Shown: positions 7,401 to 53,490 of the stretch, in pieces | How positions within the stretch are numbered: the first letter of the stretch is position 1 | Layout: every line of letters starts with the position of its first letter | Assembly (NCBI GenBank): GCA_000091205.1 | Contig: AP006486.2 | Reading direction: 5' to 3' (one strand) | Length of the DNA: 64,000 nt | Source: Cyanidioschyzon merolae | Lineage: Eukaryota | Program-made: the position numbers and the translations under genes | The notes under the pieces: model-generated | The model's input: the letters and a program-made list of their open reading frames with translations, nothing else | What the model was told of the DNA's origin: nothing | Database searches by the model: none

Positions 7401-7600
7401 AACTTTTTTAGAGCTCGGTACCATTCAGTGTCAGACGTGATGGACCCCAAGAAGCAAACGAACATATGGAATGACGGTGACGGGACATGTTTCGATTCTC
7501 TGACCACCGTATCCAGCTGATCGGTGTATGCTTTGTAGGCTTCAGTCCGAGCGCGTATGAACGTCCAAACGGATCGTGCTAACGATATCCTCCAGAAGTA

Positions 7601-7780
7601 TACGAGGCCGCTAGAAGTGTACAACGGATACGGTTGCACACAGGCAAGAGGCATCCATTTTGCAGCGTGTTCATTGAATCGGAAAAAAAGAAGTTACCGA
7701 GGCCGCTAGAAGTGTACAACGGATACGGTTGCACACAGGCAAGAGGCATGCATTGTGCAGCGTGTTTATTGAATCGGATC
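7601..7780. repeat. Diverged tandem duplication, 2 units of about 80-90 bp separated by an A-rich linker
   Basis: The unit gaggccgctagaagtgtacaacggatacggttgcacacaggcaagaggcatSCATTKTGCAGCGTGTTYATTGAATCGGA occurs twice (7601-7688 and 7692-7780) with a few substitutions. Confidence 0.6.
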
Positions 7781-8730
7781 AAGATAGTACTGAAAAGCCT
7801 CTTCGTTAGGTGGTAGCCTACGGCACTGGACGTTCTGTGACGCGCAAGAACTACACTCCCGCTGGTTCAGCGGCAGCGCACAACGAGTACGCGGACCGAT
7901 ACAGCACGTTCGCAGTCAAAGCGTTTTGAATGACATCAGCGCATCGCGAGCACAGGTGCAAGCTGAAACAGTTCACGAAGACGATCGTGAACCAGACCCG
8001 CGTTTCTGAAATGGTGAACAGTCCGATGACCGATCCTCAAGTACCGGAGCAGTCGAAGCTAACAAGCTTGCTTCGGTGCGATTCCACCCGCAAGTGCAGG
8101 CGAAAGCGCACGCTGCACTGACACTTGAACTCTTCGATGAACGGACGGGAAAGTATCGAGCATCGGGAGCATCCGGTGGGTTTGTACACGTCGCACTCGC
8201 GAGTGAACCGCCTAGCGCTCAGAGTTGGCATCGTTTTGCAAAGTCGAGCACGTACGATGAGAGAAACATAAGCAATGGCCAGGAGAAAGGCGAACGGGTA
8301 CCCGTTTGGGGCAACGTTCCGATATGGTTTGTTCCAGGAATCCAATAAGGCTAGAGCGCCGTACATAAACATAAGGCACGGTTTTCCTAGGCAATTTCTG
8401 AATGACAATGTTGTCCCATCCTTCCAAGACGCCAAACCGACTGCACCAGTTGACCCAAAGACAAGTCGCTTGGTTTCGAAAGCCTCCAGAGATTCTGCGG
8501 CTGCTCCTGTGCTTATTACGGTTGTCTAAACAGTATGCCGATGAATCTTTGAATGAAGCGACGACATGACAATGACTAGAATACAGTGCACCGTCGATGG
8601 TGCACTCCAAGCAGTGCCGCTGTGAGCGCAGCGCCATGCCGCGTCCCCATTGGAACAACGATGCATTTTCTGATCAGGTTACACGCTTCGGCTGCATAGA
8701 TGCAGGACATAGACCAAAGATTTTTACAGC

Positions 8731-12905: not shown

Positions 12906-13298
12906 TCCCAATAGAGAGCGCTACCGGTCAACGCTTGGCCCACAGCGAACGAACGCTGTCACTTGACGCCTTGCTGGGCGCCTGCCGCCCGTAGCAGATC
13001 GCCGCCCAGCGAGGCCGCGGATCGCGTGCCATCTGCTCCGTCCAGATCCCCGGGGGCGGCAGGCGGACATCCATCAACGGACGGCCGCGTCCATTGTGTA
13101 ACTTTAGGTATATATCTGGATATAATATATCCTTTAGGAATCCTGAGGACATATCCATGTCGCTGGTCTGAGGTACGGGATCGCCATTCAACTGCGTTAC
13201 ATGAGGGAGGCTTCGTGCGTTTCGCTGGCCCGGATAGTGACTTCGAGTGACCTGCGCGTTTTCTCGGGCAACGAGCCGCAGCAGGTTTGCTTCCACTC

Positions 13299-14393
13299 AT
13301 GGACGCGAAATGGAGTCCTGTGGACCTAAATCGCGGGCCTCAGATGATGCGGCCTGTTCAAAGTGCATTTCTTTCAACCGCAACACCCACAGTGCCTGTG
13401 CGTTTGCTGCCGAACCTGACACTCGTGCAGCGCTCTCGCAGTCGCGCACTAGACGCACTCCATTTGATCACACTCAGAACCCGCTGCATCTGGCCTTGGA
13501 ATATGTCTGCAGCGCCTGGTGCGAACGAAGGCGACCCAGCGACGAAGAGCAACTCCGCGAACCGTTTTAATTCTAAGCGAACAGAACCCAGTTTGTTAAA
13601 CTTGTTCAGTTGGGGAGAGTTGGATGATTCACGTGCGGGAACCGAGAACGACGATGAAGATGATGGCTACGACGATATTTCATCCGACAGTGATGTGGAT
13701 CCAGTTCTCGACCGTGGACGCGTGTTCGGTGCTTGGTTAGACAACCAGGTTCTGAGACTGGATCGGATCCAGAGCGCTGCGATGCAAGCACCGGGCCAGA
13801 CGCTACAAGAGCGAGCCGAGCGGGCTTTCGCGCGAGGCGTACAAGCTCTAACTGACGGTCACTATGCCACAGCGAGCGATGCCATCTTCCAGGCATCCGC
13901 ATTGCCTGGACAGCAGACTCGACTTGGCGGCGAATATCTGCTCTGGCTTGCCCAGGCACTCGATGCTCAGGGCAAGAATGCGCGCGCTCAAGAGGTTCTC
14001 CGACGCCTGCAGTATCACAAAGACAGAGACGTGCGCCAGGTAGCTGAGAGTCTATTGTTTATCCTGCAGGCACCGCGGCTGCGTCTCGGCCCAGAGTCTT
14101 TCGTGAAAATCGACCTCGACGCCCTCTTGAATCAGAATCGGGCACGCGATATTCCCGGGTGGAAGAAGAGGCAACGGAGATACCGGTTCGGAAGCGGCTC
14201 CTCTGCAGCGCTCGCTGGCACTGGCAAGCGCCGCAGAGAGCCGACGAAATATTCCCTAGAATGGTTCACGTCGCAGGAGAGCGTCTCTGCGGAGGAACTT
14301 GAACGCGCGAACCAAGCATCACGCGCGGCTATGCTTGCATCGTCCGGTGTTATGCTGCTCATTCTGTTTATGCTACGTTTTCTCGGAAGGTAG
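13299..14393 (+). CDS. Hypothetical protein with an acidic Ser/Asp stretch and a C-terminal hydrophobic tail (possible tail anchor)
   Basis: The ORF 13287-14393 begins on TTG, and the first ATG is at 13299. It contains a DDEDDGYDDISSDSD acidic block and ends with a hydrophobic C-terminus MLASSGVMLLILFMLRFLGR. I recognise no family, and the true start may lie further downstream. Confidence 0.35.
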   Translation: MDAKWSPVDLNRGPQMMRPVQSAFLSTATPTVPVRLLPNLTLVQRSRSRALDALHLITLRTRCIWPWNMSAAPGANEGDPATKSNSANRFNSKRTEPSLLNLFSWGELDDSRAGTENDDEDDGYDDISSDSDVDPVLDRGRVFGAWLDNQVLRLDRIQSAAMQAPGQTLQERAERAFARGVQALTDGHYATASDAIFQASALPGQQTRLGGEYLLWLAQALDAQGKNARAQEVLRRLQYHKDRDVRQVAESLLFILQAPRLRLGPESFVKIDLDALLNQNRARDIPGWKKRQRRYRFGSGSSAALAGTGKRRREPTKYSLEWFTSQESVSAEELERANQASRAAMLASSGVMLLILFMLRFLGR

Positions 14394-15334
14394 CGCAAAG
14401 CCCGCCTATTTGCTCCAAGACTGAGCGTTTCGTTGTGCGGTGGAGCCACGGAATCCAACATTTCTATTTGTTCGCTTGTACACGGACATGATAAGTACGA
14501 TTTACACACACCAGCGCTATGCAACAAGCGAGGCATTCGCATACGAACGATGTCCAGTATATCGGTCTAAACATCGAAAGATACTCGGTTCGGAGGATAT
14601 TTAGCGGATGCAGTATGCAACGGTGCACCGCACGAGCGCAGCACAAGGTCCAGCCATTTCATATGTTTGCGCCGATGTTCCGCTTGAGTCACCAAGGAAA
14701 GGAACACCTGGTTTATTCGTGAGCCACTCGGTTGACCACTTACCACAGCACGCTTCCTCGGCCGCAGACAGGCAAGCGATCTCGGGTATCGATGCGACTT
14801 GCTGAAGACAAAGTCGACCACTTGAATAGGTCCAAACCAGCCAGCTGCGGAGAGACTGGTCGGTCCCGTTCAGCCAGGCTTTCTTTGCGTGAGTTTCTGA
14901 GGTACACCCCACGCCCACCCTACACTGTTGAAGCTATTTGGCATAACTTGAGCGTCCCAGTTGGACAGCAGAACACCAATAGACACGCGAAATTGAACCA
15001 CGGCCGGCCGGGTCTCTGTCACGGAAGCTTGACGCGGTGACTGCGCTGGGTCTCCTATGAGGAACCGGTCGGACGACCACGAGCGATCCGTTCCACGATA
15101 GCACCGTCTGCCAGGACGTCAACAGCTAAGCGAAGCGTGCGCACGAGCGCATCCAGTCTCTCGTCGAAGCGCTCTAGCTGGGCTTCGAGCACCCGCAGCG
15201 CTACCACTGTGCGCTGGTACGCCGCTGCCGCCTGCCGTAGACACTCCGTTTCTCGTTGTAGCTGCTTCTCCCAACTGGCAGGCGATCCCTCCGTCGTCGA
15301 CGTCTCCGCTGCCATGGAGAACACGCACACACCG

Positions 15335-17960
15335 ACAACGAATGCCTTTTACAAGAAAAAACGTTGCTGCCGCAAGTGGTATAGTAGTGGCGACAAACGC
15401 ACCGTAGACAAGGAGTCTTCAGCCGACGTGCAGACGCATCTCAGTCTTTCTCGACCGGCCACCCACTACTTCTTCCAACATTTTTTCATATAGTTCGAGT
15501 TTGAGAGGTTGTCCAACAAAATTCTATCTCGTCCACTCTGGAAGTCTATTCTCCAGCACCGCACGTCTCCTTATATTGATAGCGGCATTAATGTCTCGGT
15601 TCACAAACTCCATCCGTTTCTTGCCATCACTGGATGTACTTAATAATGCGAGTAGTCCACGAACTTTCGCTCTCCTTTCCATTTGCTCCTCCGTCAACGG
15701 TCCGTGCTTTGCTATTTCCTCAGGGCTCCGCTAATACTTTTCCATCTCGACCCTCTGAAGTGTACACCCCAGTTCATGGTGTGTATACGATGTTCGGAAG
15801 TCATCTACGGGTATCGTAACGAAACGCCGTGCGCACTCCTTGCACGTTTTTGTCGTTGGAGCTGGTGTAATGCCTTTTTTCGACGCCCAGCGCCCTGCTC
15901 CATACGCTACTACGAGCCTCTGACTTTCATTCTCCCTCAGGGCGCTCAACTGATTGAAAAAGTTCGAGAACGCCCGCTGCTTCCCACAATACAAATTCAT
16001 ACGCAAACGAGCCCACCGGGGCTTGGTGGATTCTTTCCACAGGGCATCCCAATGAGCAGCGCGAACTTCCATGAACTCCCGAAATGCTTCAAAGTCGGTT
16101 CCTCGGCTCGTCACCTCGCTCAAAGCTTCCAGGTGATCCCTCACTCCTGACTTCTAGGTCTCATTTTGTTTCCTCGCATTCATTATACCGGAATCCCGGT
16201 AGGATCTCGCTCTCGGGAACTTGAAAACTCGCATGTCTTTATGACGTAAATTGTCGTCGACACTATCTTCCGCACGCTTGGGTACAGCGACGGTTATGAT
16301 ATTTGTGTTTCCGGGGTCCGCGCCAACGACAAAGCCGTTATCGTGCACTTTCTGTGTTGCACGATCCACCTCCTTCTTTTCTCGATGCTTCGCCGCGTCA
16401 ACGACAAAGCCGTTATCGTGCACTTCGTGTGTCGCAGGATCCTCCTTCTTCGTACCTTCATCCTTCGCCACGGGCGGAGCTGGACGATCTGTCTTTAAGC
16501 GCCGATAGTGTACAGACATGGCTACTCCATCGTTTTCGATCATCCCAGTGAATACCTTTCGCTTGCTCACTTTCAGACGTTTGAAATCGACGAAATTCTT
16601 CTTCCAGTGCGTCTCCCGGCTTTCGCCGGAGAACTCCTCCCTGCTGACATTGAACTCCGGACTGATCTCCCTCATGATGCCGTAAAGGACGCCTGAATCG
16701 ATAGTCACGAAATGTGACCTGATGTTGCACATTGGAACCACGTTGAAGCGCTTCCCCATTAGGAAAGCCTTCCGCCTCTCCCACTCTTCATTTGTCTCCT
16801 CATTCAGCTTCATTTCCGCCTTGCGTTCCAGCTCTCCGTCCAGCAACACGAAATAGCGCAGGGCGAGGCGATAGTATCTTTCCTTATCTTTTTTCGACTC
16901 TGATAGCTTGTCTGTTGGACTCAGCAGCCCCAGTACCGCACGATGCTCTTCTACAACCGCACGGATGACAGAAGCTTCATTCGTGCTCTCGTTTGACGCC
17001 TTCTCTCCGACGAATTCGATCTCCTGTTCATGCTTGCGATCGTTCGTGACGCCATTGGTAATCGCCCATTTTCCTTTGCGAGCGATGCCAGGGTACAGCG
17101 CAAACACGGCGCGTATCATGAAGCGTTCGAGGTTCATAGTAAAATGGTTCTTCAGGTTCCTGATGTACTTCATCGCTCCGTATGTGTAAATGCACCAGTC
17201 AATTTTGTATCGAGTACCGTCGAAGCTCTAAAAGGGATGTTTTTCGTGGAGGGCATGCACTAGCACATTTTCCCTCGGCGCTTCCGCTGTACCAAGCATC
17301 AGGTGTCGAATAAAGGTCTTATCGAGAAACCCGTCCGGAATCCCGACCGTTTCCATCTGCGCCACGTCGCGATACATCTCCCTCGCCATATGCATCAGTC
17401 CTGAAGACGCCTTGACAATACTCTTGGAGTATGACGCAACACTGTTTTCGATAGCGTCTCGCAGCTTTTCCCTGTACGGATCCTTGATATTTTTAAGAAG
17501 ACAGACTTTCACCACCTTCTTGTCGCACAGTCGTCTTTCGTGCCGCCTTCGACGCAGAGCGTCCCACTTTCAGTCCTTCTTCTCTTCCTTTTCTTCTGGA
17601 CTTGGCACTGTTTTTCTGTTTTTTCTGGCAGCCCGCGACACTGGGCCTCCAGGATCATCGACTTGCTTTTCATAACTTCCTTTTTTTTGTTTTTTTTTGG
17701 AAAACAACGCTCCCTCCAACGCCTCTGATATAAACAGCGAGGAAAACTTGAATAAACCAAACTGAGGGTTGAAATATAACTGAACTGAAAAGTACACTCT
17801 GCTATGACTTTAACGCAAATGCAACTTGTACTTGAGAGCAACACGCTCAAGATCGCGATCCCGTTTCCCTTCAACGACGACATGCGCGTCGTATCTCATG
17901 CCTGCCAGATATGGAGGTGCGCGTATCGACCGCGATGCCCCCTGGCACTGTATGGGCCGA
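15335..17960 (-). mobile_element. Fanzor-like (eukaryotic TnpB/OMEGA-nuclease family) element, copy A, decayed
   Basis: The minus-strand ORF chain 17673->15524 is about 715 codons. It has a KKRKRRR NLS-like N-terminus, a [14 protein letters not shown] RuvC-I-like motif, a TKTCKECARRF...HH..C zinc-ribbon, and an NRDINAAINIRRRAVLEN RuvC-III motif. The 3' terminus lies near 15335 (aacgaatgcc...), and the same terminus is seen in copy B and at 53385. The 5' flank shares similarity with copy 3 out to about 17960. Confidence 0.7.
15524..17673 (-). pseudogene. Fanzor/TnpB-like nuclease gene, copy A, interrupted by in-frame stops
   Basis: An in-frame TAG at 16154-16156 sits where copy B has TGG (Trp). 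An in-frame TAG at 15731-15733 sits where copy 3 has CAG (Gln). An in-frame TGA in the N-terminal region sits where copy 3 has CGA. Otherwise the frame is colinear with copy B. Confidence 0.65.
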
Positions 17961-18839
17961 GGGGCCCACCATGCGCACCCGGTTCAGTCGGATATCCATG
18001 CAGACCCCAACGCACCGCAAGAACACTTGGATGAAATCGATGCAGATTTGGCTGAAGCGACGGTTATGCGAAAACACGCTCGAATCGTTCCCCAGAAATG
18101 TAGAAGGCTCCTACCGCCTCAAGCGAACTGTTCGAACAACCATATGGGAACGTAGACACGGAACCAGTCGCGCCAGTAACGCCCGCCTTGACTCTATACC
18201 GGAACTACAACCTAGCATACACATGCGAGTACTGGTGGGAGGCGCTGGAGTTCCCGGGACTTGCTCGCGGTATCCAGTGGCTCGCCAAAATCCGCGTTGG
18301 TGGTTGCTGACTACCAGCACCTGCGCTAAACCATATAGGAACACTGGAATCGCAGTGGGAATCACACTGTCCCTGCTGTGGAAACGATAAACCCGAGACG
18401 CTGACATATTTAGGCTTACAGTGCGCGCGCTGGAAGCAGGAGCGCAGCGAGCTCCTTGAAGGACGGCATCAGCCGGGTATCACCGTGATAGTCGAAGGCC
18501 GGACACTCACTTTGAGTGCAGCACTGGCAACTGATGGTCCGCTAACGGAGCCTCAGCGCTCATTCGTGGCCAACAGACTCACGTGCTACCTTCCAAGCGG
18601 AAGGTCTAGCGAATCGGACGCGCACACGGGTTTAGTATGCTTTCTGCGCCTATCCACTGTGGTGAGCGTCAAGCACAAACCCGCATTGCCAACCGACAAC
18701 AACGCGTTCCATGCATGATCACGAAGGAGAGAGACGACTCCCAGAATATATCTTAACGGCCAAGTGTCTCCAGCGTGTCGTGCCGCGAAGGCAAGCTTGC
18801 ATCCGCAGACCGTCCGAGCACAAACTGACGACGAGACCC

Positions 18840-18995
18840 GATTCTACGTCGGGTGAAGCACCCCTCGAGCCGACGCCCTCTGTGGTATGGAAAAGCCGTT
18901 CTAGCTCGATAAACTCTCTGCCCCAGCGGTTCAAGCGCAAAGGCGGATATGGAACGGCAGGTATTAGGTACCCACGACAGGACGTATGAGACGAT
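18840..18995 (+). repeat. Fragment of the roughly 650 bp element-R repeat family (see 21741-22400) inside the spacer of the Fanzor inverted repeat
   Basis: It encodes ..PLEPTPSVVWKSRSS.., which matches the SDP.S.EP.LE..PSVV.QSR segment of element R copies at 21840-22037 (minus) and 48692 onward (plus). Confidence 0.5.
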
Positions 18996-19154
18996 CAGTA
19001 TCTCCAAGAAGAAGTATAGGTAATGTAACTTGGAGGGAGGGGGCTTTATGGATATATTACCGCGCGCTGAAGTAAAACGCAAAACAAAAGAGAACGAAAA
19101 GAAAAAGCGCACAATAGGAGAATGCTGGCCCAAGTAAACGTCTTATCAATAGAA

Positions 19155-21705
19155 AAATTGCCGTCGTTGAAGGGAAACGGGATCGCGATCTTGAGCGTGT
19201 TGCTCTCAAGTACAAGTTGCATTTGCGTTAAAGTCATAGCAGAGTGTACTTTTCAGTTCAGTTATATTTCAACCCTCAGTTTGGTTTATTCAAGTTTTCC
19301 TCGCTGTTTATATCAGAGGCGTTGGAGGGAGCGTTGTTTTCCAAAAAAAACAAAAAAAAGGAAGTTATGAAAAGCAAGTCGATGATCCTGGAGGCCCAGT
19401 GTCGCGGGCTGCCAGAAAAAACAGAAAAACAGTGCCAAGTCCAGAAGAAAAGGAAGAGAAGAAGGACTGAAAGTGGGACGCTCTGCGTCGAAGGCGGCAC
19501 GAAAGACGACTGTGCGACAAGAAGGTCGTCAAAGTCTGTCTTCTTAAACATATCAAGGATCCGTACAGGGAAAAGCTGCGAGACGCTATCGAAAACAGTG
19601 TTGCGTCATACTCCAAGAGTATTGTCAAGGCGTCTTCAGGACTGATGCATATGGCGAGGGAGATGTATCGCGACGTGGCGCAGATGGAAACGGTCGGGAT
19701 TCCGGACGGGTTTCTCGATAAGACCTTTATTCGACACCTGATGCTTGGTACAGCGGAAGCGCCGAGGGAAAATGTGCTAGTGCATGCCCTCCACGAAAAA
19801 CATCCCTTTTAGAGCTTCGACGGTACTCGATACAAAATTGACTGGTGCATTTACACATACGGAGCGATGAAGTACATCAGGAACCTGAAGAACCATTTTA
19901 CTATGAACCTCGAACGCTTCATGATACGCGCCGTGTTTGCGCTGTACCCTGGCATCGCTCGCAAAGGAAAATGGGCGATTACCAATGGCGTCACGAACGA
20001 TCGCAAGCATGAACAGGAGATCGAATTCGTCGGAGAGAAGGCGTCAAACGAGAGCACGAATGAAGCTTCTGTCATCCGTGCGGTTGTAGAAGAGCACCGT
20101 GCGGCACTGGGGCTGCTGAGTCCAACAGACAAGATATCAGAGTCGAAAAAAGATAAGGAAAGATACTATCGCCTCGCCCTGCGCTATTTCGTGTTTCTGG
20201 ACGGAGAGCTGGAACGCAAGGCGGAAATGAAGCTGAATGAGGAGACAAATGAGGAGTGGGAGAGGCGGAAGGCTTTCCTAATGGGGAAGCGCTTCAACGT
20301 GGTTCCAATGTGCAACATCAGGTCACATTTCGTGACTATCGATTCAGGCGTCCTTTACGGCATCATGAGGGAGATCAGTCCCGAGTTCCATGTCAGCAGG
20401 GAGGAGTTCTCCGGCGAAAACCGGGAGACGTACTGGAAGAAGAATTTCGTCGATTTCAAACGTCTGAAAGTGAGCAAGCGAAAGGTATTCACTGGGATGA
20501 TCGAAAGCGATGGAGTAGCCATGTCTGTATAGTATCGGCGCTTGAAGACAGATCGTCCAGCTCCGCCCGTGGCGAAGGATGAAGGTACGAAGAAGGAGGA
20601 TCCTGCGACACACGAAGTGCACGATAACGGCTTTGTCGTTGACGCGGCGAAGCATCGAGAAAAGAAGGAGGTGGATCGTGCAACACAGAAAGTGCACGAT
20701 AACGGCTTTGTCGTTGGCGCGGACCCCGGAAACACAAATATCATAACCGTCGCTGTACCCAAGCGTGCGGAAGATAGTGTCGACGACAATTTACGTCATA
20801 AAGACAAGCGTCTGCTGATGTTGTCAAGAGCTAGATATTACCGGGAATCCGGTATAATGAATGCGAGGAAGAAAATCGTTTCATGGAATTCAGGAATGAA
20901 AGATCACCTGGAAGCTTCGAGCGAGGTTACGAGCCGAGGAGCCGACTTTGAAGCATTTCGGGAGTTCATGGAGGCTCGCGCTGCTCATTGGGATGCCCTG
21001 TGGAAAGAATCCACCAAGCCCCGGTGGGCTCGTTTGCGTATGAATTTCTGTTGTGGGAAGCAGCGGGCGTTTTCGAACTTTTTCAATCAGTTGAGCGCCC
21101 GGAGGGAGAATGAAAGTCAGAGGCTCGTAGTAGCATACGGAGCAGGGCGCTGGAAGACCCAAAAGGGACTATGCCAGCTCCAACGACAAAAACGTGCAAG
21201 GAGTGCGCACGGCGTTTCGTTACGATGCCCGTAGATGACTTCCGAACATCGTATACACACCATGGACTGGGGTGTACACTCCAGAGGGTCCAGATGGAAA
21301 AGTATTAGCGGAGCCCTGAGGAAATAGCAAAGCACGGACCTTTGACGGAAGAGCAAATGGAAAGGAGAGCGAAAGTTCGTGGACTACTCGCATTATTAAG
21401 TACATCCAGTGATGGCAAGAAACGGATGGAGTTTGTGAACCGAGACATTAATGCCGCTATCAATATAAGGAGACGTGCGGTGCTGGAGAATAGACTTCCA
21501 GAGTGGACGAGATAGAATTTTGTTGGACAACCTCTCAAACTCGAACTATATGAAAAAATGTTGGAAGAAGTAGTGGGTGGCCGGTCGAGAAAGACTGAGA
21601 TGCGTCTGCACGTCGGCTGAAGACTCCTTGTCTACGGTGCGTTTGTCGCCACTACTATACCACTTGCGGCAGCAACGTTTTTCTTTCGAAAGGCGTTCGC
21701 TAGCA
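19155..21705 (+). mobile_element. Fanzor-like element, copy B; inverted duplicate of copy A with its 5' end truncated at about 19155
   Basis: It is about 97% identical to copy A at the protein level over MKYIRNLKNHF...NRDINAAINIRRRAVLENRLPEWTR. Similarity to copy A stops at ...cccttcaacgacg near 19155, and the 3' terminus lies near 21705. Confidence 0.7.
19367..21515 (+). pseudogene. Fanzor/TnpB-like nuclease gene, copy B, with frameshifts and in-frame stops
   Basis: There is an in-frame TGA at 19468-19470 and a TAG at 20530-20532 where copy A has CAC. A 2 nt deletion near 21165 frameshifts the zinc-ribbon region. The TAG at 21306-21308 is shared with copy A. The RuvC-III motif NRDINAAINI lies at 21440-21470. 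Confidence 0.65.
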
Positions 21706-21740
21706 GCCTTCGATGATGCGTTCTTCGGGAACAGCTGCGT

Positions 21741-22400
21741 TTTTTTTTCTGATGAAAAAATGGTTAGATTCACTATGGATCCCAGAATTCGGAATGGATA
21801 ATGGCTTTCGGGAAAGCGTCCACGATGAAGCGCCTACCTTCAAGTTCTATCACGCATACTTCCTCTCGGATATACTGGTCGTTTCGTATATTCTATCGTG
21901 CGCCGAGCCTGCCGTGAACACCCGCCGTAGCGCTTATACCACTGAAGCAGATGCCACACGGAGACAGAACGGCTTTGCCATACCACTGAAGGCATCGACT
22001 CGAGGCGTGGTTCCTCCGACGTGGGGTCGGAGTACATAATATATCTGGGAGCCTGTAAGCTGCGCAGACAGACGCACTGCCTGTGGCAGCGCGGAGCGAT
22101 CTACAAGGAGTCCACTGTGACCACGGAGACGCCCAGACGCAGCATCCTGCTCCAAGTCCCCGAATGAAATGCGTTGCGGACGAGTTGTGCAGGTATCGCC
22201 ACAAAACCTGCCATTGGAGGAAGCATGAAGCACTAGCTAGCCCCGAAGACTCGTCCGGCTCGCGGGACCTTCCGCCTAGAAGGTAAAGTTTCGAAGATGC
22301 GGAAACTTTCCCCCTTTTCCATGAGTCATATCAAGGTCGAAAGAAACTGTTATCGAGTTGCTAGTCAGTTGTTAGTTTCTGTTCTTTCGTCTCTAGGAGA
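21741..22400 (-). repeat. Element R, copy i: roughly 650 bp non-coding repeat with a short A-tail (SINE/retroposon-like)
   Basis: It is about 80-85% identical to 27866-28515 and to the reverse complement of 48335-48993. On its own (minus) strand it ends ...ttttttcatcag followed by A9 (the T-run at 21741-21749 on plus). The 5' ends of all three copies coincide, which argues for a discrete unit. No conserved ORF is present. Confidence 0.65.
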
Positions 22401-22796
22401 AAGCTCGCTGCTCACGGTCGGGCACAACTCGAGGGCCCACCAGTTCGAAAACTGGCTATTGCTGCTGCTGCCCCTATGCAACGCGCTGGAGTGCGCTCGC
22501 TCTACAACCTCCTGTCCGCGCCCTTGGCCAAAACTGACCACCTGTGATCAACGCGCGATCGCAGCGTTGTGTGGTTGCGTCGCTTCGCGAGGAAGCGCGC
22601 AGGCCCACGACCCGTGTGCGGATGACGCCGACATTGAGATCGCGCTCGCGATGGCGATCGCAAACAGACTTCAGGGCTCGCCGTTGTGCTCGCGACTCTG
22701 TTTCGTGAACAAAGCCTGCGCACTTAGCACGCTCATTTTATATCGATTCATTTAGGAGCGCCAGCAGTGATCTAGAAGGAGAATAGAAGCGCTACA

Positions 22797-23873
22797 ATGT
22801 TGAGGTGCGACTTTTGTGAGACGACGGAGACGCCATTATGGCGCGCGGGCCCTCGCGGACCCAAGACTCTGTGTAACGCCTGTGGCGTGAAGTGGAAAAA
22901 GGGGAAGCTTGATGGCTTCGGTCCCGGTGCCTGTAATGTGCCCAGAACGCACACGGGAAAGAGGCATCCGCGAGCGGTATATGGAAGACCTCGTCGAGCA
23001 GGTGCCGTCGCGGATGCGCTGGAACTGCCTTCCCCGGAACGCAGCCTCAGCAAGTTCCGGGGAAGCGTCCGTCCGGGTTGGTATGTGCCGTCCGAACTCG
23101 AGTACTCTGGCAGAATTCAACACCCGAGGCGGAGTAGCTCGCCGCCTGAAACACGCTGTGCGTACGTTGACGTTGATCGTGAGGACTCAGCACCGGTCGT
23201 GCGAGAGCAGTTTGCGCCCTCTGTTTTCGCACCCAGTATTCCTTGTCGCGGAGAGAGCGCGCCTCTTAATATTGTGCGAAAGGATGCAGGTCGTGGTCCC
23301 GGAACACAACATACAACGTTACCGGCGGACCACTTGATTCGTGAGTCGCTGTTCGTTCGCGTCGATAGTGAACGGGCGTTGGCGTCGGACCCCATTGGGT
23401 ATCCAGCGGCGATACCGTCCTGGGATGACGTCTCCATTGAATCGCTCTCCGAGGATGGTGACGGTGCCGACAACTACCATGACTTGGAGCTGAACCTGCC
23501 CGAACAAATGCCTCTGCCCGACGCTGCGCATACAAGTACGCACGTCCTCGGAGGTGAGCATGACTGGCGTCACGCCCAAGGCGCTGCATCTGGGGAAACT
23601 GCCTTGCCACTGCCACTGCCGCTGGCACCCGCGAAAGGCTCACTAACGAAAACCATGGAACGTGAGCCTGTGGATGCTGCTACCAAAGGTGTCCGTCTGC
23701 TCCTAGATGCAGCGCGGTACGTGGAGTACGCGAGCAGCCCGCTCTCGTCGCAGTGGTCACCCCTGAGATCGGCATCGTCCAGCGCTCCGCCGTATCACCA
23801 GGCTGGTACCTCGTCCCCGAACCGTCTCACACCATCCTATCTAACACCAATGGTGCTGGAGAAGGACTGGTAA
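22797..23873 (+). CDS. GATA-type zinc-finger transcription factor
   Basis: It starts at ATG. The N-terminus CDFCETTETPLWRAGPRGPKTLCNACGVKWKKGK is a canonical C-x2-C-x17-C-x2-C GATA finger with the basic tail. The rest is low-complexity. Confidence 0.7.
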   Translation: MLRCDFCETTETPLWRAGPRGPKTLCNACGVKWKKGKLDGFGPGACNVPRTHTGKRHPRAVYGRPRRAGAVADALELPSPERSLSKFRGSVRPGWYVPSELEYSGRIQHPRRSSSPPETRCAYVDVDREDSAPVVREQFAPSVFAPSIPCRGESAPLNIVRKDAGRGPGTQHTTLPADHLIRESLFVRVDSERALASDPIGYPAAIPSWDDVSIESLSEDGDGADNYHDLELNLPEQMPLPDAAHTSTHVLGGEHDWRHAQGAASGETALPLPLPLAPAKGSLTKTMEREPVDAATKGVRLLLDAARYVEYASSPLSSQWSPLRSASSSAPPYHQAGTSSPNRLTPSYLTPMVLEKDW

Positions 23874-26186
23874 CGCATGTGAGTGGGTATTCGCCTGCCC
23901 CGCCGAGCGGATCATTGTCCATGGACGAGGCGTTCGGCGTACGTCATCAGATGTGCAGCGTTTAACGCGAACGACGAGAGCACCTCCCGCGCTTCCGCGA
24001 AGGGAAGCATTGTCCACGGACAAGGCGTGTGCGGATGCGTCATCAGTTATGCAGCGCTTTACGGCAACGGTGCGAGCACGTCGCACCCGAGTCCCGTAGG
24101 TGCGCCTGTGTCGTGTGCGTTTACGAATGCGCATCCGTGACATTCGTGTCCCGCGTTACCGTCAGACACGCACACACGAAGCGTGTTGCCACTGAGCTGC
24201 CGTGCAATAGCGGCACGCTCTTCTAATCTCTAATCCTTAACCTTTTGAAACAACTGAAACTTTCAACCTCATTTCTATTTTACCCACACACGGTCTCCTG
24301 ACATGAACTACAAATGTGATGTGGTCAAAAGAAGACGCATTCAGTCAGAAATATCGCTGATATGCGAGCGCCGACTTGGTACTAGTGCCGACGCTGTGCG
24401 TACCTCGACAGTGGACAGGCAGGGAGGCACACGGAGGTCATGTTGAACACAAATGCCGTGGCGGTATGGTGTTCGACTCCTGCCACCCGCTGGTCTCTTA
24501 TCGAGGCCGCACTGATGCTGCTTGCCTGTTCGCGTCGTCGGTGCGTGCGCCGAGCGGCGGCAAAGCCTGTGCTTCGTATGTAACTTAGATTGAACGCATA
24601 CCCGCAGATATCAAGTATGCTAACTCGTTTAACAGTAAAACTCACCGAGTGTCTCTTGAACGAGTGCTGTTCTGTTCATCGCGCTGCGCATGGACTTGTT
24701 CTGGGAACGCTGCGTACCGCTCTTGACCACAGACATGCGGCTGTATGGTGCGATACGCAGCGGACATCATCGCAGAGACAGTGTCCTAGATATTGGTAAA
24801 AGACAGTGATCACATCGGAGGCAGCTTCTAGTATCGCAGCGCAAGGGCGATGATCGCAGCGGGGGCGCATCCCGCAGGGCAGCACGAAGTTTGACCGAGA
24901 AACTGCTGGTGTGTGACTAGCCTCTCTCCGCATACACTCCAGGCCATTAAGCAACGGGTCACGAACACCTGCAAAAACGATCGATTTTAGAGCTGTGCTT
25001 GAAGGCCATCGCCCCAGGCCCTGGACACGACTACTCGCAGAACTGCATAACCGGGACCGAAGAGAACCTGCTCCAGCATAATGTTCGGGTCATCGGTGTT
25101 TGTTGACAAGTCGGCGGTGGCTCGAGCTGCTCCATCAGTCCGTTCAGGAAGCTTCGCTCGCGACGTGTGTCCCGGGAAGCGATCGAACAGCCCTTCATTA
25201 CAGAACGTTCACTTCCAGGCTTCCAAACTCGATATCGCGGTGGCAAGAGTGATCAGTGATGTACGTTCCACTGGCGCCGTTCTTGCCCCGTTGGCGCTAC
25301 CAGCGACACACGAAAAACCACCTGTGGCGTTCTGCAGCAACGCCTGCTGTATCGGAAGTGCATGGCTTTAAACGAACGCGAAGCGTTACCAGGTGAGGTT
25401 TCATTGCAGCTCACGGGCTCGATGTTCTCGAGCAGCCTCGAGCCGTACGAGCGATCGCGACGAGCAGTCAAAACGAGACTGTGTTGCCTGGCTGCGAGGG
25501 GCGGCGTTCGTTCGGATTCCCTCGTTCAAAACACTACTGAACGCGACTCTGCGTTTACCATCGGACGAAATCGCAGGCATTCGTTGAAGTTTATAAGAAT
25601 GCTCGATGGGAGCGCATACTCCTGCTCTATTGCCAAGGTGTTCATTGCCCAAGGCGATGGATGCTTTCTTCGCGAGCGCCAACGTCCACAACGAATGCAC
25701 GTGCGTTTGTTGCGCATCGCCCGAAGCGTAGGTTGTCCCACACGCGGCTGCAGTTCGCAACAAAAATCGCCACAGACCCCTGTCGAACGTCTGTCAGAGA
25801 GATGGACTGGAAGCGCCGGCAAAGGCCAGCAGCAATCCCGCATCCGAACGAGACCTGCTAGCTTCATGAGTCTTAGATCAGGAGTCACCACGACGACTTC
25901 GGGCAGCGTGACCGCGCTATCCAAGCTTGCCGATGCGTCATCGCGTCAAAAGTGAGCGTCTTTGCTGCACACGATGCTCATGGCTTATGTCTGCAACACA
26001 TTCGATTAGGACAGCTTCGCAAGCACCAGCTACGCACATCACCACCGCATAACTGCAGTACAATAGGCAGCGAATCGCATGCCAGGCCGCTTATCGACCC
26101 AGCTATGCTTCTGTCTACTGCAGAGGCCATGGATCAGAACTCGCTGGAGTCTGGGCAGCGCCTTTGCTGGTGACTGCACCATGCCA

Positions 26187-27728
26187 CTACGGGATCTCCT
26201 CGGGGAGCACCGGGGACGCTGCCCCGAACACCCTTTGGATGTAGTCATTATCGAATCCTTGAAAAATTTGCTCACGTTCTGCAGTTGCCTTTGAACTGCC
26301 AATGCCAGCCTCTGGCACTGCATGTTCTGAATTGTCCGAAAGCGTGGTGTCTGTAGCGCATGTATGCCGACCAAGCGACAAGTGATGGCGACGAGCGCCG
26401 TGCTCACGTAGTGCCGCTTCAATGAGGGCTGGATTGGAACGCTCTTCTTTCTTGAATTTGTTCTTGATTTGTTTTCGGTTTCGATTGGGAAAGAGCTGCT
26501 CAATCATAGAATAGTTTTGACCGAAAGCTCGTAGCGCACGATAGAAAAGCGCAGTCTCCTCAGGCGGCCAGCGCTCACAAGAGGCGCGATTCGTGAAGGA
26601 CGCAATGGTCGCAGCACCGCGGCGAGGCGCTCCAGTATGCGTTTCAACAGAGATGTTCTCGTTCTCTGCTGGACGCTGCTCGCTCGTTATGGCAGTGCGC
26701 AGAAGTCTCTGCTGCTCAGCGCGTATCGCTCGACGGTGGCGCTGGACACGGCGCTGCAGATCGCACTCGACCGACGCTGGACCCGAAGCCGCTGACGCCA
26801 TCGAAGCGTTACCTCCCACCGCACCAGCATGATCTGAATGCTGTTCAGGGTGCACGCTTTCTTGTCCAGCATCAGCGTGCGCATCCGCCACATGCGAAGC
26901 GGTGACGACTAACGAGCGCTCATCCAGGACAAGGTTGCCGCGATTATCTAAGCGGACCTGTGGTGCAAGAACGACGGTATCTGCACCAGGGATCCGTCGG
27001 TCGAGCCTGTCGGATTGTGTGTCCTCCACGATAGCAGGCGATTCATAGAGTCGTTCAGGAACCAACACATCACGTGTGGCTGGTGCCCCTGATACACCGC
27101 CTTGCCTAGGCGATGGGCCCTCGGTCTCTGCGGGTATCTGCAACCCGATGTCTTTCGCAGACGCTTCCGCAACTGTTTCTTCAGAGCCAGGTGAGCAGTG
27201 TGCGGTACCCGTACGGTTGTCAGCCTGTCGTCGACGGCGGTCCACAGTTGGAGTGCGGTTGACGGGGCGCTGGCGGCTTCGTACGAGTTCTCGGATCCCT
27301 AGAGAGAGAGGATCAACGCTCATGGCTCCCGTATAACTTTTCTCAGCGTCTACTGCGCTTGCATCACTTGGTCGCGAGTGGCCCAGGCTGCTTCCGCCCG
27401 TCATTCGCGTGCGTTCAACATCCTGCACGAACCGAGACAACGGCGGAGAGACTAGCAGCCGTGTCATACCGCCCTGTTCAGAGACAGCTTCAGCGTCCAA
27501 ATAGTCGTCCGAGCCGACATCAACTTCGGGGACGCTGCGTTGACCCGGAACTACGTGACTTGCGACCTCCGAGTGAGGAGCTTCGTTGACTCCCACAGTG
27601 CCGCTGGACGGGTGCGTGTTCGGCGACCTTGGGGTCTGCCGCGGCACACGCCGTTGGCGCTTTCGCGAAGCACCCTCTGGCGGTAGTGAGGCTACCAACT
27701 CGATATTTTCAGTTGGTGAAGTCGACAT
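26187..27728 (-). CDS. TFIIIB B'' (Bdp1)-like protein with a SANT/Myb domain
   Basis: It starts at ATG. The C-terminal segment WPPEETALFYRALRAFGQNYSMIEQLFPNRNRKQIKNKFKKEERSNPALIEAAL matches the Bdp1 extended SANT domain (..LF..AL..FG.DFS.I..L.P.RTRRQIK.KFK.EE..NP..I..AL). The remainder is low-complexity. Confidence 0.6.
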   Translation of the reverse strand: MSTSPTENIELVASLPPEGASRKRQRRVPRQTPRSPNTHPSSGTVGVNEAPHSEVASHVVPGQRSVPEVDVGSDDYLDAEAVSEQGGMTRLLVSPPLSRFVQDVERTRMTGGSSLGHSRPSDASAVDAEKSYTGAMSVDPLSLGIRELVRSRQRPVNRTPTVDRRRRQADNRTGTAHCSPGSEETVAEASAKDIGLQIPAETEGPSPRQGGVSGAPATRDVLVPERLYESPAIVEDTQSDRLDRRIPGADTVVLAPQVRLDNRGNLVLDERSLVVTASHVADAHADAGQESVHPEQHSDHAGAVGGNASMASAASGPASVECDLQRRVQRHRRAIRAEQQRLLRTAITSEQRPAENENISVETHTGAPRRGAATIASFTNRASCERWPPEETALFYRALRAFGQNYSMIEQLFPNRNRKQIKNKFKKEERSNPALIEAALREHGARRHHLSLGRHTCATDTTLSDNSEHAVPEAGIGSSKATAEREQIFQGFDNDYIQRVFGAASPVLPEEIP

Positions 27729-27865
27729 GTCACCCTGCAGCTGAAAGCACAGGCGAAACGGCGCTTTCCTGAACCGCTACCAGCCACGTAGATACAGCAC
27801 TTTGAGCATTGAAAAAGTAAGGCTGCGGGCGCCTGCCGCAGTGCCGGTGCGCTGGCTCTGTTATC

Positions 27866-28515
27866 CCTTTTTTTCGATGACGAAACGTTTATATGGACCG
27901 TGGATCCCAGATTGCTGAATCCATACAGGCTTTCGGGAATGTTTCCATTATGCAGGGCAATACTCCCAAGTTCCGTCACGTATACTTCCTTTCGGATATA
28001 CTGGTCGTGTTGTACATGCTATCGTTCACAGAGTACCCGCTGTGAGCGCTCGCCGTAGCGCCTTTACCGCTGGTGCGGATGAAGCGCGGAGACGGAACGG
28101 CGTTGGTATGCCCATAGACATGTAGGCTCGAGGCATGGTGCACCTGATACGGTGTCGGAGTACGTAGTAATTCTGGGAGCCTGCAAACTGCGTAGACAGA
28201 CCTACTGCCTGCGGTACCGGGAGGCGATAAACTAGGAGTCCACCGCGACCGGGGTGATATCCAGATGCAGCTTAACTGCCCCTAGTCCTGGAATAAACTG
28301 CACTGCGGACGAGTTGCTCAGATCTCACTGAGGCACGAGGCACAGTGGGGAGCAAGAAGCGCAAGCGCGGCAAACTCGTCCGGCTCACGGGACCTTCCGC
28401 CTGGAAGGTAAACTAGCGATAATACGGAAACCTTTTCCCCTTTTACCGTCTACGTTAGAGAGGGAAAGAAATCGCTATCTCGTTCCTAGTTCGTGGTTCG
28501 TCTCTGTTCTCTTTT
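27866..28515 (-). repeat. Element R, copy ii (solo copy, not next to a Fanzor gene)
   Basis: It aligns end to end with copies i and iii. The T7 run at 27866-27872 corresponds to an A-tail on the minus strand. Confidence 0.65.
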
Positions 28516-33100: not shown

Positions 33101-33259
33101 CACAGGGGCGCTGCCTATGATAGGGAGTGGGGCGCGTTCGTGGAGCATCCGCGAGGAAATGTTGAGCGCTTCTATTCGCTTTTTTATGGGTGCGCTTCTC
33201 AGGGCCCACCATATCGGACACAATCGTAGAGTGGTGAGGGCCTTTTGGAGTCGTCGTTG

Positions 33260-49959: not shown

Positions 49960-52700
49960 AACGACGTCACCGTTGTACAGTAGTGGCGAGTGACCCGCCC
50001 TAGACAAGAAGTCTCCGACTGCTATGCAGACGCCTCCGCGTCTTTCTCGACCGGCCAACTACTACTGCATCCAACTTTTTCTCATATACTTCGACTTTGA
50101 GAGGCTGTCCAACTATGTTCTCTCTTGTCGACTCTGGAGGTGTTTCCTCCAGCACTGCACATCGCCTTGTATTGATAGCGGCGATAAAGTACCGGCCCAC
50201 AAACTCCATCCGTTTCGTGCCCCCGTTGGTTGTACTTACTAGCGTGAGTAGTCCACGAACTTTCGCTCTCCTTTCCACTTCCTCCTCCGTCAGCGGTCCG
50301 TACTTTGCTATTTCCTCAGGGCTCCTCTGGCAATTTTCCATTTCGACCCTCTGAAGTGTGCACCCTAGCTCGTGTTGTGTGTAGGAGGTTCGGAACAGAT
50401 CTATCGGTTTTGCAACGAAAAGCCTTGCGCACTCCTTGAACACCCTCGTCGTTGGAGCTGGCTTAGTGCCTTTCTTGGGCGCCCAGCGCCCTGCTCTGTA
50501 TGCTGCTACTAGCCTCTGATTTTCACCCTCGTTCAAGGCGCTCAACTGATTGAAAAAATTCGCGAACGCTCGCTACTTACCACAATACAGATTCATTCGC
50601 AAACGAGTCCATCGGGGCTTTATATACTCCTCCCACACCGCATCCCAATGCACAATGCGAACTTCCATGAATATTCCGAAAAGATTCAAAGTCCGCTCCA
50701 CGGCTCGTCACCTTGCTCATAGCTTCCAGGTGCTTCTTCAGTCCAGCATTCATATCTCGATTTTCTTCCACTCATTCAATATACCGGATTCTCGATAGTA
50801 TGTCGCTCTCGAGAACCTCAAAAGGCGCATATCGTTCTGACGAAAGTAACCGTCAGTAACATCTTCCGCGCGCTTGGGTACAGCGATGGTTACGATATTT
50901 GTGTTTCCGGTGTCCCCGCCAACGAAAAAGTCGATATCTTGCACTTTCTGCGTCACAGGATCCACCTCCTTCTTCTCTTCATGCTTCGCCGCGCCAACCA
51001 TAACGTGGTTATCCTGCACTTTCTGTGTGGCAGGATCCGCCTACCTCTCATCTTCATCCTTCACCGCGCCAACGACAAGGTCGTTATCCTGCACGTTCTG
51101 TGTCGCAGGTTCCGCCCCCTTCTCATCTTGATCCTTCACCGCGTCAACAACAAGTTCGTTATTCTCCACCTCCTGCGTTGCAGGATCAGACTCCCCCTTT
51201 TCTTCATCCTTCGTGACGGGCGCAGCCGAGGGAGGGACTGGCCGATCTTTCTTCAACCACCGATAGTGTACAGACATGGCTACTCCATCGGTTTCGATCA
51301 TCCCTGTGAATACCTTTTATTTGCTGACTTTCACACGTTTGAAATCGAAGATATTCTTCCACAAAGGCTCCCGGATTTCACCGGTGAGGTCCTCCCTGTT
51401 AACATTGAACTCCGGACTGATCTCCCTCATGATGCCGTAAAGGACGCCTGAATCGATAGTCACAAAATGTGACTTGATGTTGCTCATTAGAACCACGTTG
51501 AAGCGCTTCCCCATTAGGACAGCCTTCCGTCTCTCCCATTCTTCATTTCTTCCTCAAACAGCTTCATCTCCGCCTTCCGCTCGAGCTCCCGGTCCAGAAA
51601 CACAAAATACCGCATTATGAGATAATAGTATCTTTCCTTATCTTTTTTCGACTCTGATATCATATCTCTTGGATTCGCCAACCACAGTACCGCACGTTGC
51701 TCTTGTCTAGCCGCACGGATCGCAGAAGCTTCGTTCGCGCTCTCGTTTACGCCTTCTCTCTGACAAATTCGACCTCATCTTCACGCTTGCGATCTTTCGT
51801 GATGGCCTTGATAGTCGCCCGTTTTCCATTGCGAGATAGGCCCGGGTAGAGTGCAACCACGGCACGTAACATAAAACGTTCGAGGTTCACTGTCAAATGG
51901 TCCTTCAGATTCGTGGGGTACTTCATGGGCCCATATGAGTGAACATCCCGGTAACCCCAGTATCGAGTACCACTGAAGCTGTAAAAGGGATGTTTTTCGT
52001 GGAGGGCATGCACCCGCTCATTTTCCTTCCGAGCTTCCTCTGTGCCAAGCATCAGCTGACTAACAAAGGTCTTGTCGAAAAAATCTTTCGGAATCTCTAC
52101 CGTTTCCATGTGGGTCACGTCGCGATCCATCTCCCTCGGCAAATGCATCAGTCCTGACAACGCGTTGACAATACTCTTGGAGTAAGAGGCCACATGTTTT
52201 TCGATAGCGTCTCGCAACTTACCCTGTAGGGATCCTTGATATGTCCAAGAAGGAAGGTTTTCACCACCTTCTCGTTGTAAAGTCGACTTTCTTGCCGCCT
52301 TCGATGTAGGGCCTCCTGCTTTCGGTTCTTCAGCTCTTCCTTTTCTTCAGGACTCGGCACTGCTTTTTGTTCTTTTCTGGCAGCCGGCGACCTTGGACCT
52401 CCAGGATCGTGGGCTTGCTTTTTCATAAATTTCCTTTTCTTGTTTTTTAAAGATAACGCTCTTTGAACGCTTCTGTTAGATACTGCGCAAAACACTTGAC
52501 TAGACTTGTTTGAAGCTTGAAACGAAAATGAACAGAAACACTGTACTTTGCTAGGACCTGAACGGAAATTTAACTTTTTTCCAGCTGAACAACACGCTAG
52601 AGATCATAATCACGTTTCCCTTCAACAGCGGCACGCGCGTCGTGTCTCATGTCTGTCTGATCTCCGAGGTGCACTCACCGAGCGCGATGCCTGCACCGCG
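49960..52700 (-). mobile_element. Fanzor-like element, copy 3 (diverged family member, decayed)
   Basis: The minus-strand ORF chain 52426->50000 is colinear with copies A and B at about 60-70% identity. It contains [71 protein letters not shown]...HELGCTLQRVEME and KRMEFVGRYFIAAINTRR. Its 3' terminal sequence (49960-50030) is related to the copy A/B termini, and its 5' flank (about 52600-52700) resembles the copy A 5' flank. Confidence 0.65.
50000..52426 (-). pseudogene. Fanzor/TnpB-like nuclease gene, copy 3, with frame breaks, a lost RuvC-III Asp and an internal tandem repeat expansion
   Basis: The conserved NRDINAAINI is replaced by GRYFIAAINT, so the catalytic Asp is lost. Several frame breaks lie between 50545 and 52150. 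Segment 50930-51240 holds about 4 tandem ~75 nt units encoding (D/E)PATQ.V.DN.LVV.A.K, against 2 units in copies A and B. Confidence 0.6.
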
Positions 52701-53384: not shown

Positions 53385-53490
53385 ACAACGAATGCCTTTG
53401 AGAAAAACGCTGCCGCCCGCGGTGTACAATAGTGCCGAATGACCTGCCCTAGACATGAAGTCTCCAACTGACGTGCAGACGTTTGCAAAA
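53385..53490. repeat. Solo fragment of a Fanzor-element 3' terminus
   Basis: The fragment aacgaatgcctttgagaaaaacgctgccgc...gtgtacaatagtgccgaatgacctgccctagacatgaagtctccaactgacgtgcagacg matches the terminal about 100 nt of copy A (15337-15440) and of copy 3 (49965-50030). No adjacent ORF is present. Confidence 0.5.

Follow-up and report, generated by a model that had tools for sequence, protein, structure and literature searches.

Two head-to-head Fanzor1 pseudogenes form a palindrome with mosaic arms in Cyanidioschyzon merolae

Organization of the locus

The DNA stretch analyzed here comprises 64,000 nt of contig AP006486.2 of Cyanidioschyzon merolae (assembly GCA_000091205.1) and is referred to as the window. 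It contains two copies, A and B, of an element encoding a Fanzor1-type protein, a eukaryotic relative of the RuvC nuclease TnpB, which face away from each other and form a palindrome (Table 1). A repeat search found three collinear inverted pieces (15873-17703/19337-21167, 15348-15878/21161-21691 and 17682-17882/19159-19359), which BLAST merges into one match of 15339-17882 against 21699-19159, with a length of 2544 nt, an identity of 96.97% and a distance of 1276 nt between the arms. These values agree with the original prediction, made without database searches, of a palindrome with arms of about 2.5 kb and about 97% identity around a spacer of about 1.27 kb. The same prediction counted at least three copies and one solo end in 64 kb, and both a third copy (copy C) and a solo 3' end are indeed present on the minus strand. 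The terminus of the window is GGGAATGGGGGGAATGGGGGG; AATGGGGGG is the telomere unit reported to be unique to C. merolae (PMC1955436), and the outer end of arm B lies 42.3 kb from the telomere.

Neither A nor B is able to make a protein and the locus has no nuclease function today, since both start codons are lost, each copy has five in-frame stop codons, B is also frameshifted, and the relocated catalytic glutamate of the family is replaced by aspartate in both (PVDDFRTS). Their description as pseudogenes was therefore correct. In copy A, the lost start gives YEKQ in place of the MKKQ of copy C, and the stops are TGA 17572-17570 and TAG 17230-17228, 16156-16154, 15733-15731 and 15526-15524. 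Copy B shares four in-frame stops and the lost ATG with A, and its private lesions are a stop at ~20530 (AMSV*YRRLK) and a 1-nt deletion at 21167 which shifts the frame. The gene was first given ~715 codons by ending it at the premature TAG 15526-15524 of copy A. Furthermore, the KKRKRRR stretch proposed as a nuclear localization signal (17595-17575) lies one base out of the conserved frame, in which the basic stretch of copy A is RRRRHERR (17554-17531).

A hidden Markov model (HMM) of the family, built on 66 relatives, matches copy A at 17593-15470 (independent E-value, iE, of 1.4e-168), copy B at 19447-21159 (iE 2.5e-134) and 21162-21569 (iE 4.3e-29), and copy C with an iE of 9.4e-85. In copy C the glutamate is replaced by leucine, RuvC-I reads GGDTGNTNI and the RuvC-III aspartate is gone. 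The replacement of the glutamate in the window copies is a lesion of decay and not evidence against a Fanzor1 ancestry.

Metagenome contigs across the palindrome

Related loci were studied in metagenome contigs from several unrelated hot-spring samples, which are labeled L001 onwards. Together they cover the palindrome from one flank to the other, both arms and the entire spacer included, at 97.6-99.4% identity. On the left side, L087 spans 13210-17782 and joins the unique left flank to nearly all of arm A, and L088-L090 also cross the junction between the left flank and A. In the center, L092 spans 17754-19496, which includes the inner end of A, the entire spacer and the inner end of B, and shows the same junctions as the window; the A/spacer junction is also crossed by L093 (17524-18839) and L094. 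On the right side, L040, L081, L084 and L086 connect B to the unique right flank, with L040 and L081 covering 19182-25000 and 19893-32592, respectively. The check for an assembly artefact, proposed together with the palindrome, thus upholds the inverted arrangement with contigs from other samples.

Assignment to Fanzor1

A and B are almost certainly dead copies of a Fanzor1/CMe-1A element. A profile search of 1.84 billion representative proteins gave 2496 relatives, many of them full length (600-700 aa), and one of the metagenome relatives, P0001 (752 aa), is 67% identical to the repaired open reading frame (ORF) of copy A over 93% of its length. The relatives of this Fanzor1 subfamily in public metagenome proteins, ~2500 in number, are encoded mostly on contigs of 2-4 kb. 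A profile of 66 relatives matches only three PDB sequences, all of them Fanzor1: PpFz1 of Parasitella (1.4e-23), SpuFz1 of Spizellomyces (9e-17) and GtFz1 of Guillardia (4.2e-11). This deeper profile was needed because the single sequence and a shallow profile failed: the repaired ORF alone matched nothing relevant in PDB and only PF07282 (Cas12f1-like TNB) in Pfam, at E = 0.11, and a 15-sequence profile showed no Fanzor match. The Pfam search suggested for the repaired gene was therefore unproductive with the ORF itself and successful with its relatives, 13 of the 66 of which match PF07282 (best E = 2e-8).

The motifs DPG, DEFRT and NRDxNAAxNI are in register with RuvC-I, the alternative glutamate and RuvC-III of the solved Fanzor1 proteins. 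RuvC-I of the window aligns to MDPGR of PpFz1 and IDPNK of SpuFz1, and NRDINAAINI aligns to NRDQAAVLNF and NRDMLSTCNM, so that the first assignment of GADPGNTNI to RuvC-I and of NRDINAAINI to RuvC-III holds. D484, E656 and D725 are invariant across the 66-sequence alignment. The canonical RuvC-II site is a glycine (AYG) in the family and the invariant glutamate of VDEFRTS lies ~33 residues downstream. A rearranged RuvC-II, in which the canonical position is inert and an alternative glutamate lies further downstream, has been described in Fanzors (PMC10530073); the family shows this rearranged site, whereas the window copies lack the glutamate. The four zinc-finger (TNB) cysteines of PpFz1 and SpuFz1 (CPKC/CPRC and a second pair) align to consensus columns that are not cysteine, and the only cysteine conserved in the family (LWC) is missing in the window copies. 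The C-x2-C...HH..C zinc ribbon reported at first sight does not hold up either: its TCKEC lies upstream of the catalytic glutamate, and the first cysteine is a tyrosine in the consensus.

Tertiary structure was modeled on P0001, the nearest near-intact relative, in place of the pseudogene. With the 66-relative alignment, AlphaFold gave a model with a predicted local distance difference test (pLDDT) of 82 and a predicted template modeling score (pTM) of 0.80; with a shallow 14-sequence alignment the pLDDT was 37. The model shows the Fanzor/TnpB fold (WED, REC and RuvC), in line with the RuvC fold anticipated for the repaired protein. The top seven Foldseek matches in PDB are all Fanzor1 (E = 1.1e-16 to 3.6e-14), with template modeling (TM) scores of 0.70-0.72, normalized to SpuFz1; SpuFz1 itself is matched with E ~1e-16 and a TM score of 0.70, and Cas12 proteins come next in the list with E about 1e-2. 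Both the profile and the Foldseek matches support the proposed Fanzor1 type. The only disordered segment of the model (low confidence, residues 388-470) is the insert of 25-aa tandem repeats. These 25-codon repeats stand just before RuvC-I and vary in number: two in A and B, ~4 in copy C (50914-51212) and up to ~6 in L018 (7160-7671).

The family shares with SpuFz1 (8GKH), PpFz1 (9CF0) and GtFz1 (9CER) the fold, the register of the motifs, a length of ~650-750 aa and an ORF that adjoins a structured 3' non-coding end. However, identity to them is only 12-15%, and the family differs in the lack of the four conserved zinc-finger cysteines, in the variable 25-aa tandem-repeat insert before RuvC-I and in showing no terminal inverted repeats or known transposase. 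In addition, all copies of the family examined are dead, and RNA-guided cleavage is a predicted activity. Bacterial TnpB proteins (IS200/IS605, IS607; OMEGA) share the RuvC nuclease core, and their elements are expected to carry a guide-RNA scaffold at the 3' end, where the window family shows hairpins; in contrast, the window family is eukaryotic and nuclear, with a much longer N-terminal half and the rearranged RuvC-II glutamate. No TnpA was seen, although no search was aimed at it. An intact protein of the family is predicted to be a nuclease whose RuvC site, formed by the aspartate of GxDPG, the relocated glutamate of VDEFRTS and the aspartate of NRDxNAAxNI, would cleave DNA under the guidance of an omega-RNA that the 3' end of the element encodes.

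Relation to the CMe-1A/WSV repeat

A, B and C belong to a family which is already published, as are its abundance and its Fanzor1 nature. Nozaki et al. (2007) described 253 copies of a transcribed 3.2-kb interspersed repeat, which make up ~5% of the C. merolae genome, with a truncated ORF weakly similar to protein WSV486 of white spot syndrome virus (WSSV); this is the WSV repeat (PMC1955436). The family was thought unexpected at first because algae of this type were taken as nearly transposon-free, a premise that these numbers contradict. Bao and Jurka (2013) classified the repeat as the Fanzor1 element CMe-1A, with ~150 copies that are ~80% identical to a consensus of ~3 kb, undetermined target-site duplications, no terminal inverted repeats and a 5' region of 635 nt in common with the short repeat TE-N2_CMe (PMC3627910). 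About half of the repeats carry H3K27me3 (PMC5405695). The window family matches CMe-1A in size (a core of ~2.6 kb, or ~3.25 kb with the 650-nt 5' module), in its multiple copies with ~80% mutual identity, truncated ORFs and no terminal inverted repeats, in the 5' module in common with a short non-autonomous repeat and in the telomere unit of C. merolae, and we see no difference at the family level. The published accounts of the family were found to contain no description of the head-to-head mosaic pair or of a second, paralogous palindrome.

Anatomy of the element

The anatomy of the element was studied in 80 metagenome loci, with ~45 distinct copies. The core unit (E) has 2601 nt in copy A (17939->15339), and many copies span E1-E7 to E2594-2601; homology of copy A to copy C and to dozens of metagenome copies begins and stops within the same limits. 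Terminal inverted repeats were not found when the first 80 nt were compared with the reverse complement of the last 80 (score of 7 and a shuffle mean of 7.6). Upstream of the core lie repeated modules of at least four kinds, R650, module S and two others, which meet it at the same 5' nucleotide (E1-E5). This shared 5' boundary is seen at 17939 and 52691 of the window and in L013, L020, L045, L052, L068 and others, and suggests either a discrete 5' end with a target preference or modular recombination. R650 probably corresponds to TE-N2_CMe (Bao and Jurka, 2013). At 10 or more metagenome loci it directly precedes the Fanzor core; in the window, one R650 copy begins 43 nt past the 3' end of arm B. 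ORFs of the spacer and of R650 showed no matches against Pfam.

Of the ~45 distinct copies, only the one in the right arm of L002, where P0001 is encoded, retains a near-complete ORF with the D/E/D residues intact. This ORF has 778 codons and a premature stop ~30 codons before the normal end. Pairs in the same orientation, or a 3'-end fragment located 0.7-1.3 kb upstream of a full copy, were observed in about six loci (window 53385-53481 with 52692-53384; L006 814-1039; L067, L072/L073, L058/L059 and L026/L030). Inverted pairs are rare and were observed only in the window and in L002.

The 80-nt non-coding 3' tail contains three recurrent hairpins, the last of which keeps a stem of 7 bp or more in all but one of 37 distinct copies. 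This terminal stem occurs in two sequence versions, one of them with conserved G-U pairs on the sense strand, and has a mean folding z-score of -2.2, compared with -0.4 and +0.07 in coding controls. When the helices were specified by hand, 79-80% of cells were paired, compared with 35-61% with slid partners. RNAalifold on the 37-sequence 3' alignment gave no meaningful consensus. The tail is a reasonable candidate for the relic of an omega-RNA or of a right-end signal; however, the folding z-scores are modest, the covariation score does not exceed shuffles and Rfam gave no match.

Divergence between the arms

The two arms show 78 differences, which are strongly clustered in three islands; outside the islands the arms are 98.6% identical. 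The densest 100-nt interval contains 27 differences, and 20,000 simulations with uniform divergence never gave more than 15. Copy C, the solo end and the metagenome copies fix the 3' terminus of the element, and on both sides the arms cease to match no more than a few nt from it, with no unique flank duplicated. At the inner end, the first 57 nt of the element, common to A and C, are missing in B. Module S followed by a complete copy starting at E4 is found in L018/L020, L059, L042-44 and the left arm of L002. This order at other loci places B at the position of an older S-class copy which lost 57 nt at the junction.

The locus L002 (span 1-5649, Ga0078972_1000527), together with L001 from a second sample, shows the same layout of inverted copy, S and copy, with arms that share only 82% identity. 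A and B have their closest relative in the right arm of L002 (85.5-86.6%, vs ~84% for other copies), and the L002 spacer is 84% identical to that of the window. The flanks are unrelated and show no synteny with those of the window, and L002 therefore counts as a paralogous locus here. One assembly provided 21 copies for pairwise comparison, with a median identity of 80.4%; pairs that are not adjacent reached at most 87%, and only the tandem neighbors in L067 were closer (94.8%). High identity thus tracks adjacency and not recent transposition.

A bias like that of repeat-induced point mutation (RIP) or deamination was considered as a source of the stops and of the A/B differences, and rejected for want of an excess of C-to-T or G-to-A changes; polarized substitutions were eight G>A, seven A>G, six C>T, five T>C and 22 transversions.

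Origin of the palindrome

Gene conversion between two old, inverted neighboring copies is the explanation that we favor for the similarity of the arms, with a probability of about 60%. It is favored by the clustered differences, the boundary at the 3' terminus, the S junction, the layout of L002 and the link between identity and adjacency. Two old copies would have lain inverted on either side of module S, B as an S-class copy (S and then the element) and A directly against the opposite end of S. Conversion from arm to arm, in one event or several and perhaps by double-strand-break repair through synthesis-dependent annealing with the inverted partner as template, would then have overwritten most of one copy with the other. 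Conversion would have ended where homology ends, at the 3' terminus of the element, leaving three short unconverted islands, and the first 57 nt of B may have been lost at the non-homologous junction with S. Arm-to-arm gene conversion also keeps the arms alike in the ampliconic palindromes of the primate Y chromosome and in plastid inverted repeats. The window resembles them in that its arms are 98.6% identical outside the islands while dispersed paralogues are ~80% identical, and the spacer is not homogenized; it differs in its short arms of 2.5 kb, which consist of transposon pseudogenes with no evident selected function and keep unconverted islands.

Several observations count against gene conversion between old neighbors. 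The islands are not closer to S-class copies than to others, so that they need not be remnants of the original B. The E bodies of S-class copies form no tight clade, and the discordance between the body of B and its S junction is suggestive only. A recent local duplication followed by ectopic conversions from the ~250 genomic copies could give the same mosaic, and the comparison with possible donors took in the sampled metagenome copies rather than the whole genome. Island states also appear swapped: L040, at the position of B, has the A state in island 1 (~1616-1727), and L087, at the position of A, carries B states (~2646-3030). This could reflect a real exchange of arms or inversion of the spacer, or equally path switching of the assembler in a repeat with 99% identity. 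Finally, L049 (1-1109) has a spacer that is only 89% identical and an intact S-class 5' end, and continues into a B-like body and right flank with 98-99.7% identity; it may be another haplotype or strain, or a chimera with an unsampled paralogue. L049 was rejected as a sign that the loss of 57 nt is strain-specific, since L092 has the same short junction as the window and the L049 spacer is only 89% identical.

The main competitor, which we consider unlikely, is a recent local inverted duplication of A that gave B, with islands made later by ectopic conversion patches from family members. The duplication could have arisen by template switching or fold-back in replication, or by re-insertion nearby, at a distance of 1.3 kb, of a copy truncated at its 5' end. 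The four premature stops and the lost start codon common to both arms indicate that A and B come from one already-dead sequence, as a duplication would have it, and the 98.6% identity outside the islands, the absence of the first 57 nt in B and the existence elsewhere of 5'-truncated copies and a solo 3' end fit as well. However, a random segmental duplication should not stop at the 3' terminus of the element on both arms, and the inner end of B coincides exactly with the point where module S meets the element in older paralogues. Furthermore, the last 14 nt are among the most diverged positions, which is unexpected in a fresh copy; no other young copies were seen, with non-adjacent pairs at most 87% identical among the 21 copies of one assembly; and the sampled copies included no donor that fits either island. 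An inverted duplication or breakage-fusion event, the origin first proposed, is not supported, as such events should give arm ends independent of the element ends and roughly uniform divergence. In fact, the arms end at the 3' terminus without flanking DNA, and the differences are mosaic, with a clustering that 0 of 20,000 simulations reach. The truncated 5' end of B had been given as the sign of this origin; 57 nt are indeed missing, and they have no bearing on the origin as proposed, since B lies at an S-element junction seen in at least four older paralogous loci.

It is very unlikely that the arms are independent recent insertions of one young subfamily, 1.3 kb apart and in opposite orientation. 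Both arms do end at the element's own 3' terminus, and the family shows local clustering, with tandem pairs at L067, L072/73 and L058/59, but no other member of a young subfamily was found in the window or among the ~45 distinct copies, the nearest being 85-87% identical. Uniform young copies would not show islands with 57-72% identity, and in the literature all copies are ~80% identical to the consensus and have truncated ORFs (PMC3627910, PMC1955436). A 2.5-kb inverted repeat is difficult for assemblers, and several of the metagenome contigs end inside arm B, but the chance that the palindrome is an artefact, a repeat set collapsed or mis-joined in inverted orientation, is practically nil, as the independent contigs cited above (L087-L090; L092; L093 and L094; L040, L081, L084 and L086) cover the whole structure, both arms have private differences and the outer flanks are unique.

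Significance of the locus

The locus has little weight as a discovery, since its copies are dead and the literature already covers the family, how abundant it is and its assignment to Fanzor1. Its value is descriptive: it offers a small, independently verified palindrome in a very compact genome, whose mosaic arms point to arm-to-arm gene conversion. It also lies in the anatomy, with a discrete 5' boundary that accepts interchangeable modules, a hairpin-rich 3' tail and lost zinc-finger cysteines; such knowledge could help in resurrecting, by consensus, a Fanzor1 whose host lives at ~45 degrees C and pH 2. A broader view would make the inverted copy-S-copy layout a recurrent architecture of the family, the 3' hairpins an omega-RNA and the family a resurrectable Fanzor1 of a thermo-acidophile without zinc-finger cysteines; we regard this as a long shot. 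L002 is the second case of the layout, and one of its arms holds the only near-intact Fanzor ORF found; in this view the layout could come from break repair or homing at the 5' boundary of the element, where the four upstream modules join.

Other features of the window

The coordinates of the features are listed in Table 1.

Table 1. Features of the palindrome and of related sequences in the window.
Feature	Coordinates	Strand	Remarks
Palindrome left arm	15339..17882		Repeat search and BLAST
Palindrome right arm (copy B)	19159..21699	+	Starts at element position 58 (E58), directly after module S
Spacer	17883..19158		Between the arms
Spacer, first part	17883-17939		First 57 nt of copy A; no counterpart in B
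Spacer, module S	17940-19158		Repeated 1.2-kb sequence; directly upstream of Fanzor copies at other loci
Spacer, R650-like part	18838-19040	-	Resembles R650 repeat in reverse orientation
Copy A, complete E unit	15339..17939	-	2601 nt; CMe-1A/WSV-repeat Fanzor1 element; 5' end 17939, 3' end ~15339
Copy A, Fanzor1 pseudogene	15419..17674	-	Single frame, 751 codons; natural TGA 15421-15419
Copy A, RuvC-I GADPGNTNI	16324-16298	-	
Copy A, PVDDFRTS	15811-15788	-	
Copy A, RuvC-III NRDINAAINI	15601-15572	-	
Copy A, tandem repeats	16318..16467	-	Two units of 75 nt (25 codons) in the ORF; mirror in B 20568-20717
Copy A, non-coding 3' tail	15339..15418	-	After natural TGA; two short hairpins plus a degraded terminal stem-loop
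Copy B, Fanzor1 pseudogene	19366..21620	+	751 codons after repair
Copy B, GADPGNTNI	20716-20742	+	
Copy B, PVDDFRTS	21228-21251	+	
Copy B, NRDINAAINI	21438-21467	+	
Copy B, non-coding 3' tail	21621..21699	+	Terminal 10-12 bp stem-loop intact
Island 1	16139..16233		27 A/B differences in 95 nt, 72% identity; B counterpart ~20807-20901
Island 2	15866..15905		13 differences in 40 nt, 70% identity
Island 3	15343..15356		Very 3' terminus of element; 6 differences in 14 nt, 57% identity
Copy C, same element	49972..52691	-	~80% identical to A; more decayed (IDLFRTS, GRYFIAAINT)
Solo 3'-end fragment of element	53385..53481	-	97 nt; ~700 nt upstream of copy C, same orientation
R650 repeat	21742-22388	+	~650 nt
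R650 repeat	27868-28510	+	
R650 repeat	48377-48993	-	

A fourth and much older relic of the Fanzor family is located at 6243-8274 on the plus strand and does not resemble the CMe-1A copies at the nucleotide level. It was matched by the family HMM in two frames, at 7041-7604 (iE 1.8e-19) and 7654-8274 (iE 6.9e-13), with weaker pieces to 6243. It contains many stops, the motif remnants vsvDPTSSKI and VVAYGTGR, and a 90-nt tandem duplication with 93% identity (7594-7683 and 7689-7778). For a neighboring gene, the nearest named homologue is found in Cyanidiococcus, with 74% identity. Exact look-ups of three ORFs of the window gave no recorded protein. Finally, a tandem array of ~ten 83-nt units, which are 96-98% identical, is found at 32282-33090, just upstream of the ORF at 33245-34009.

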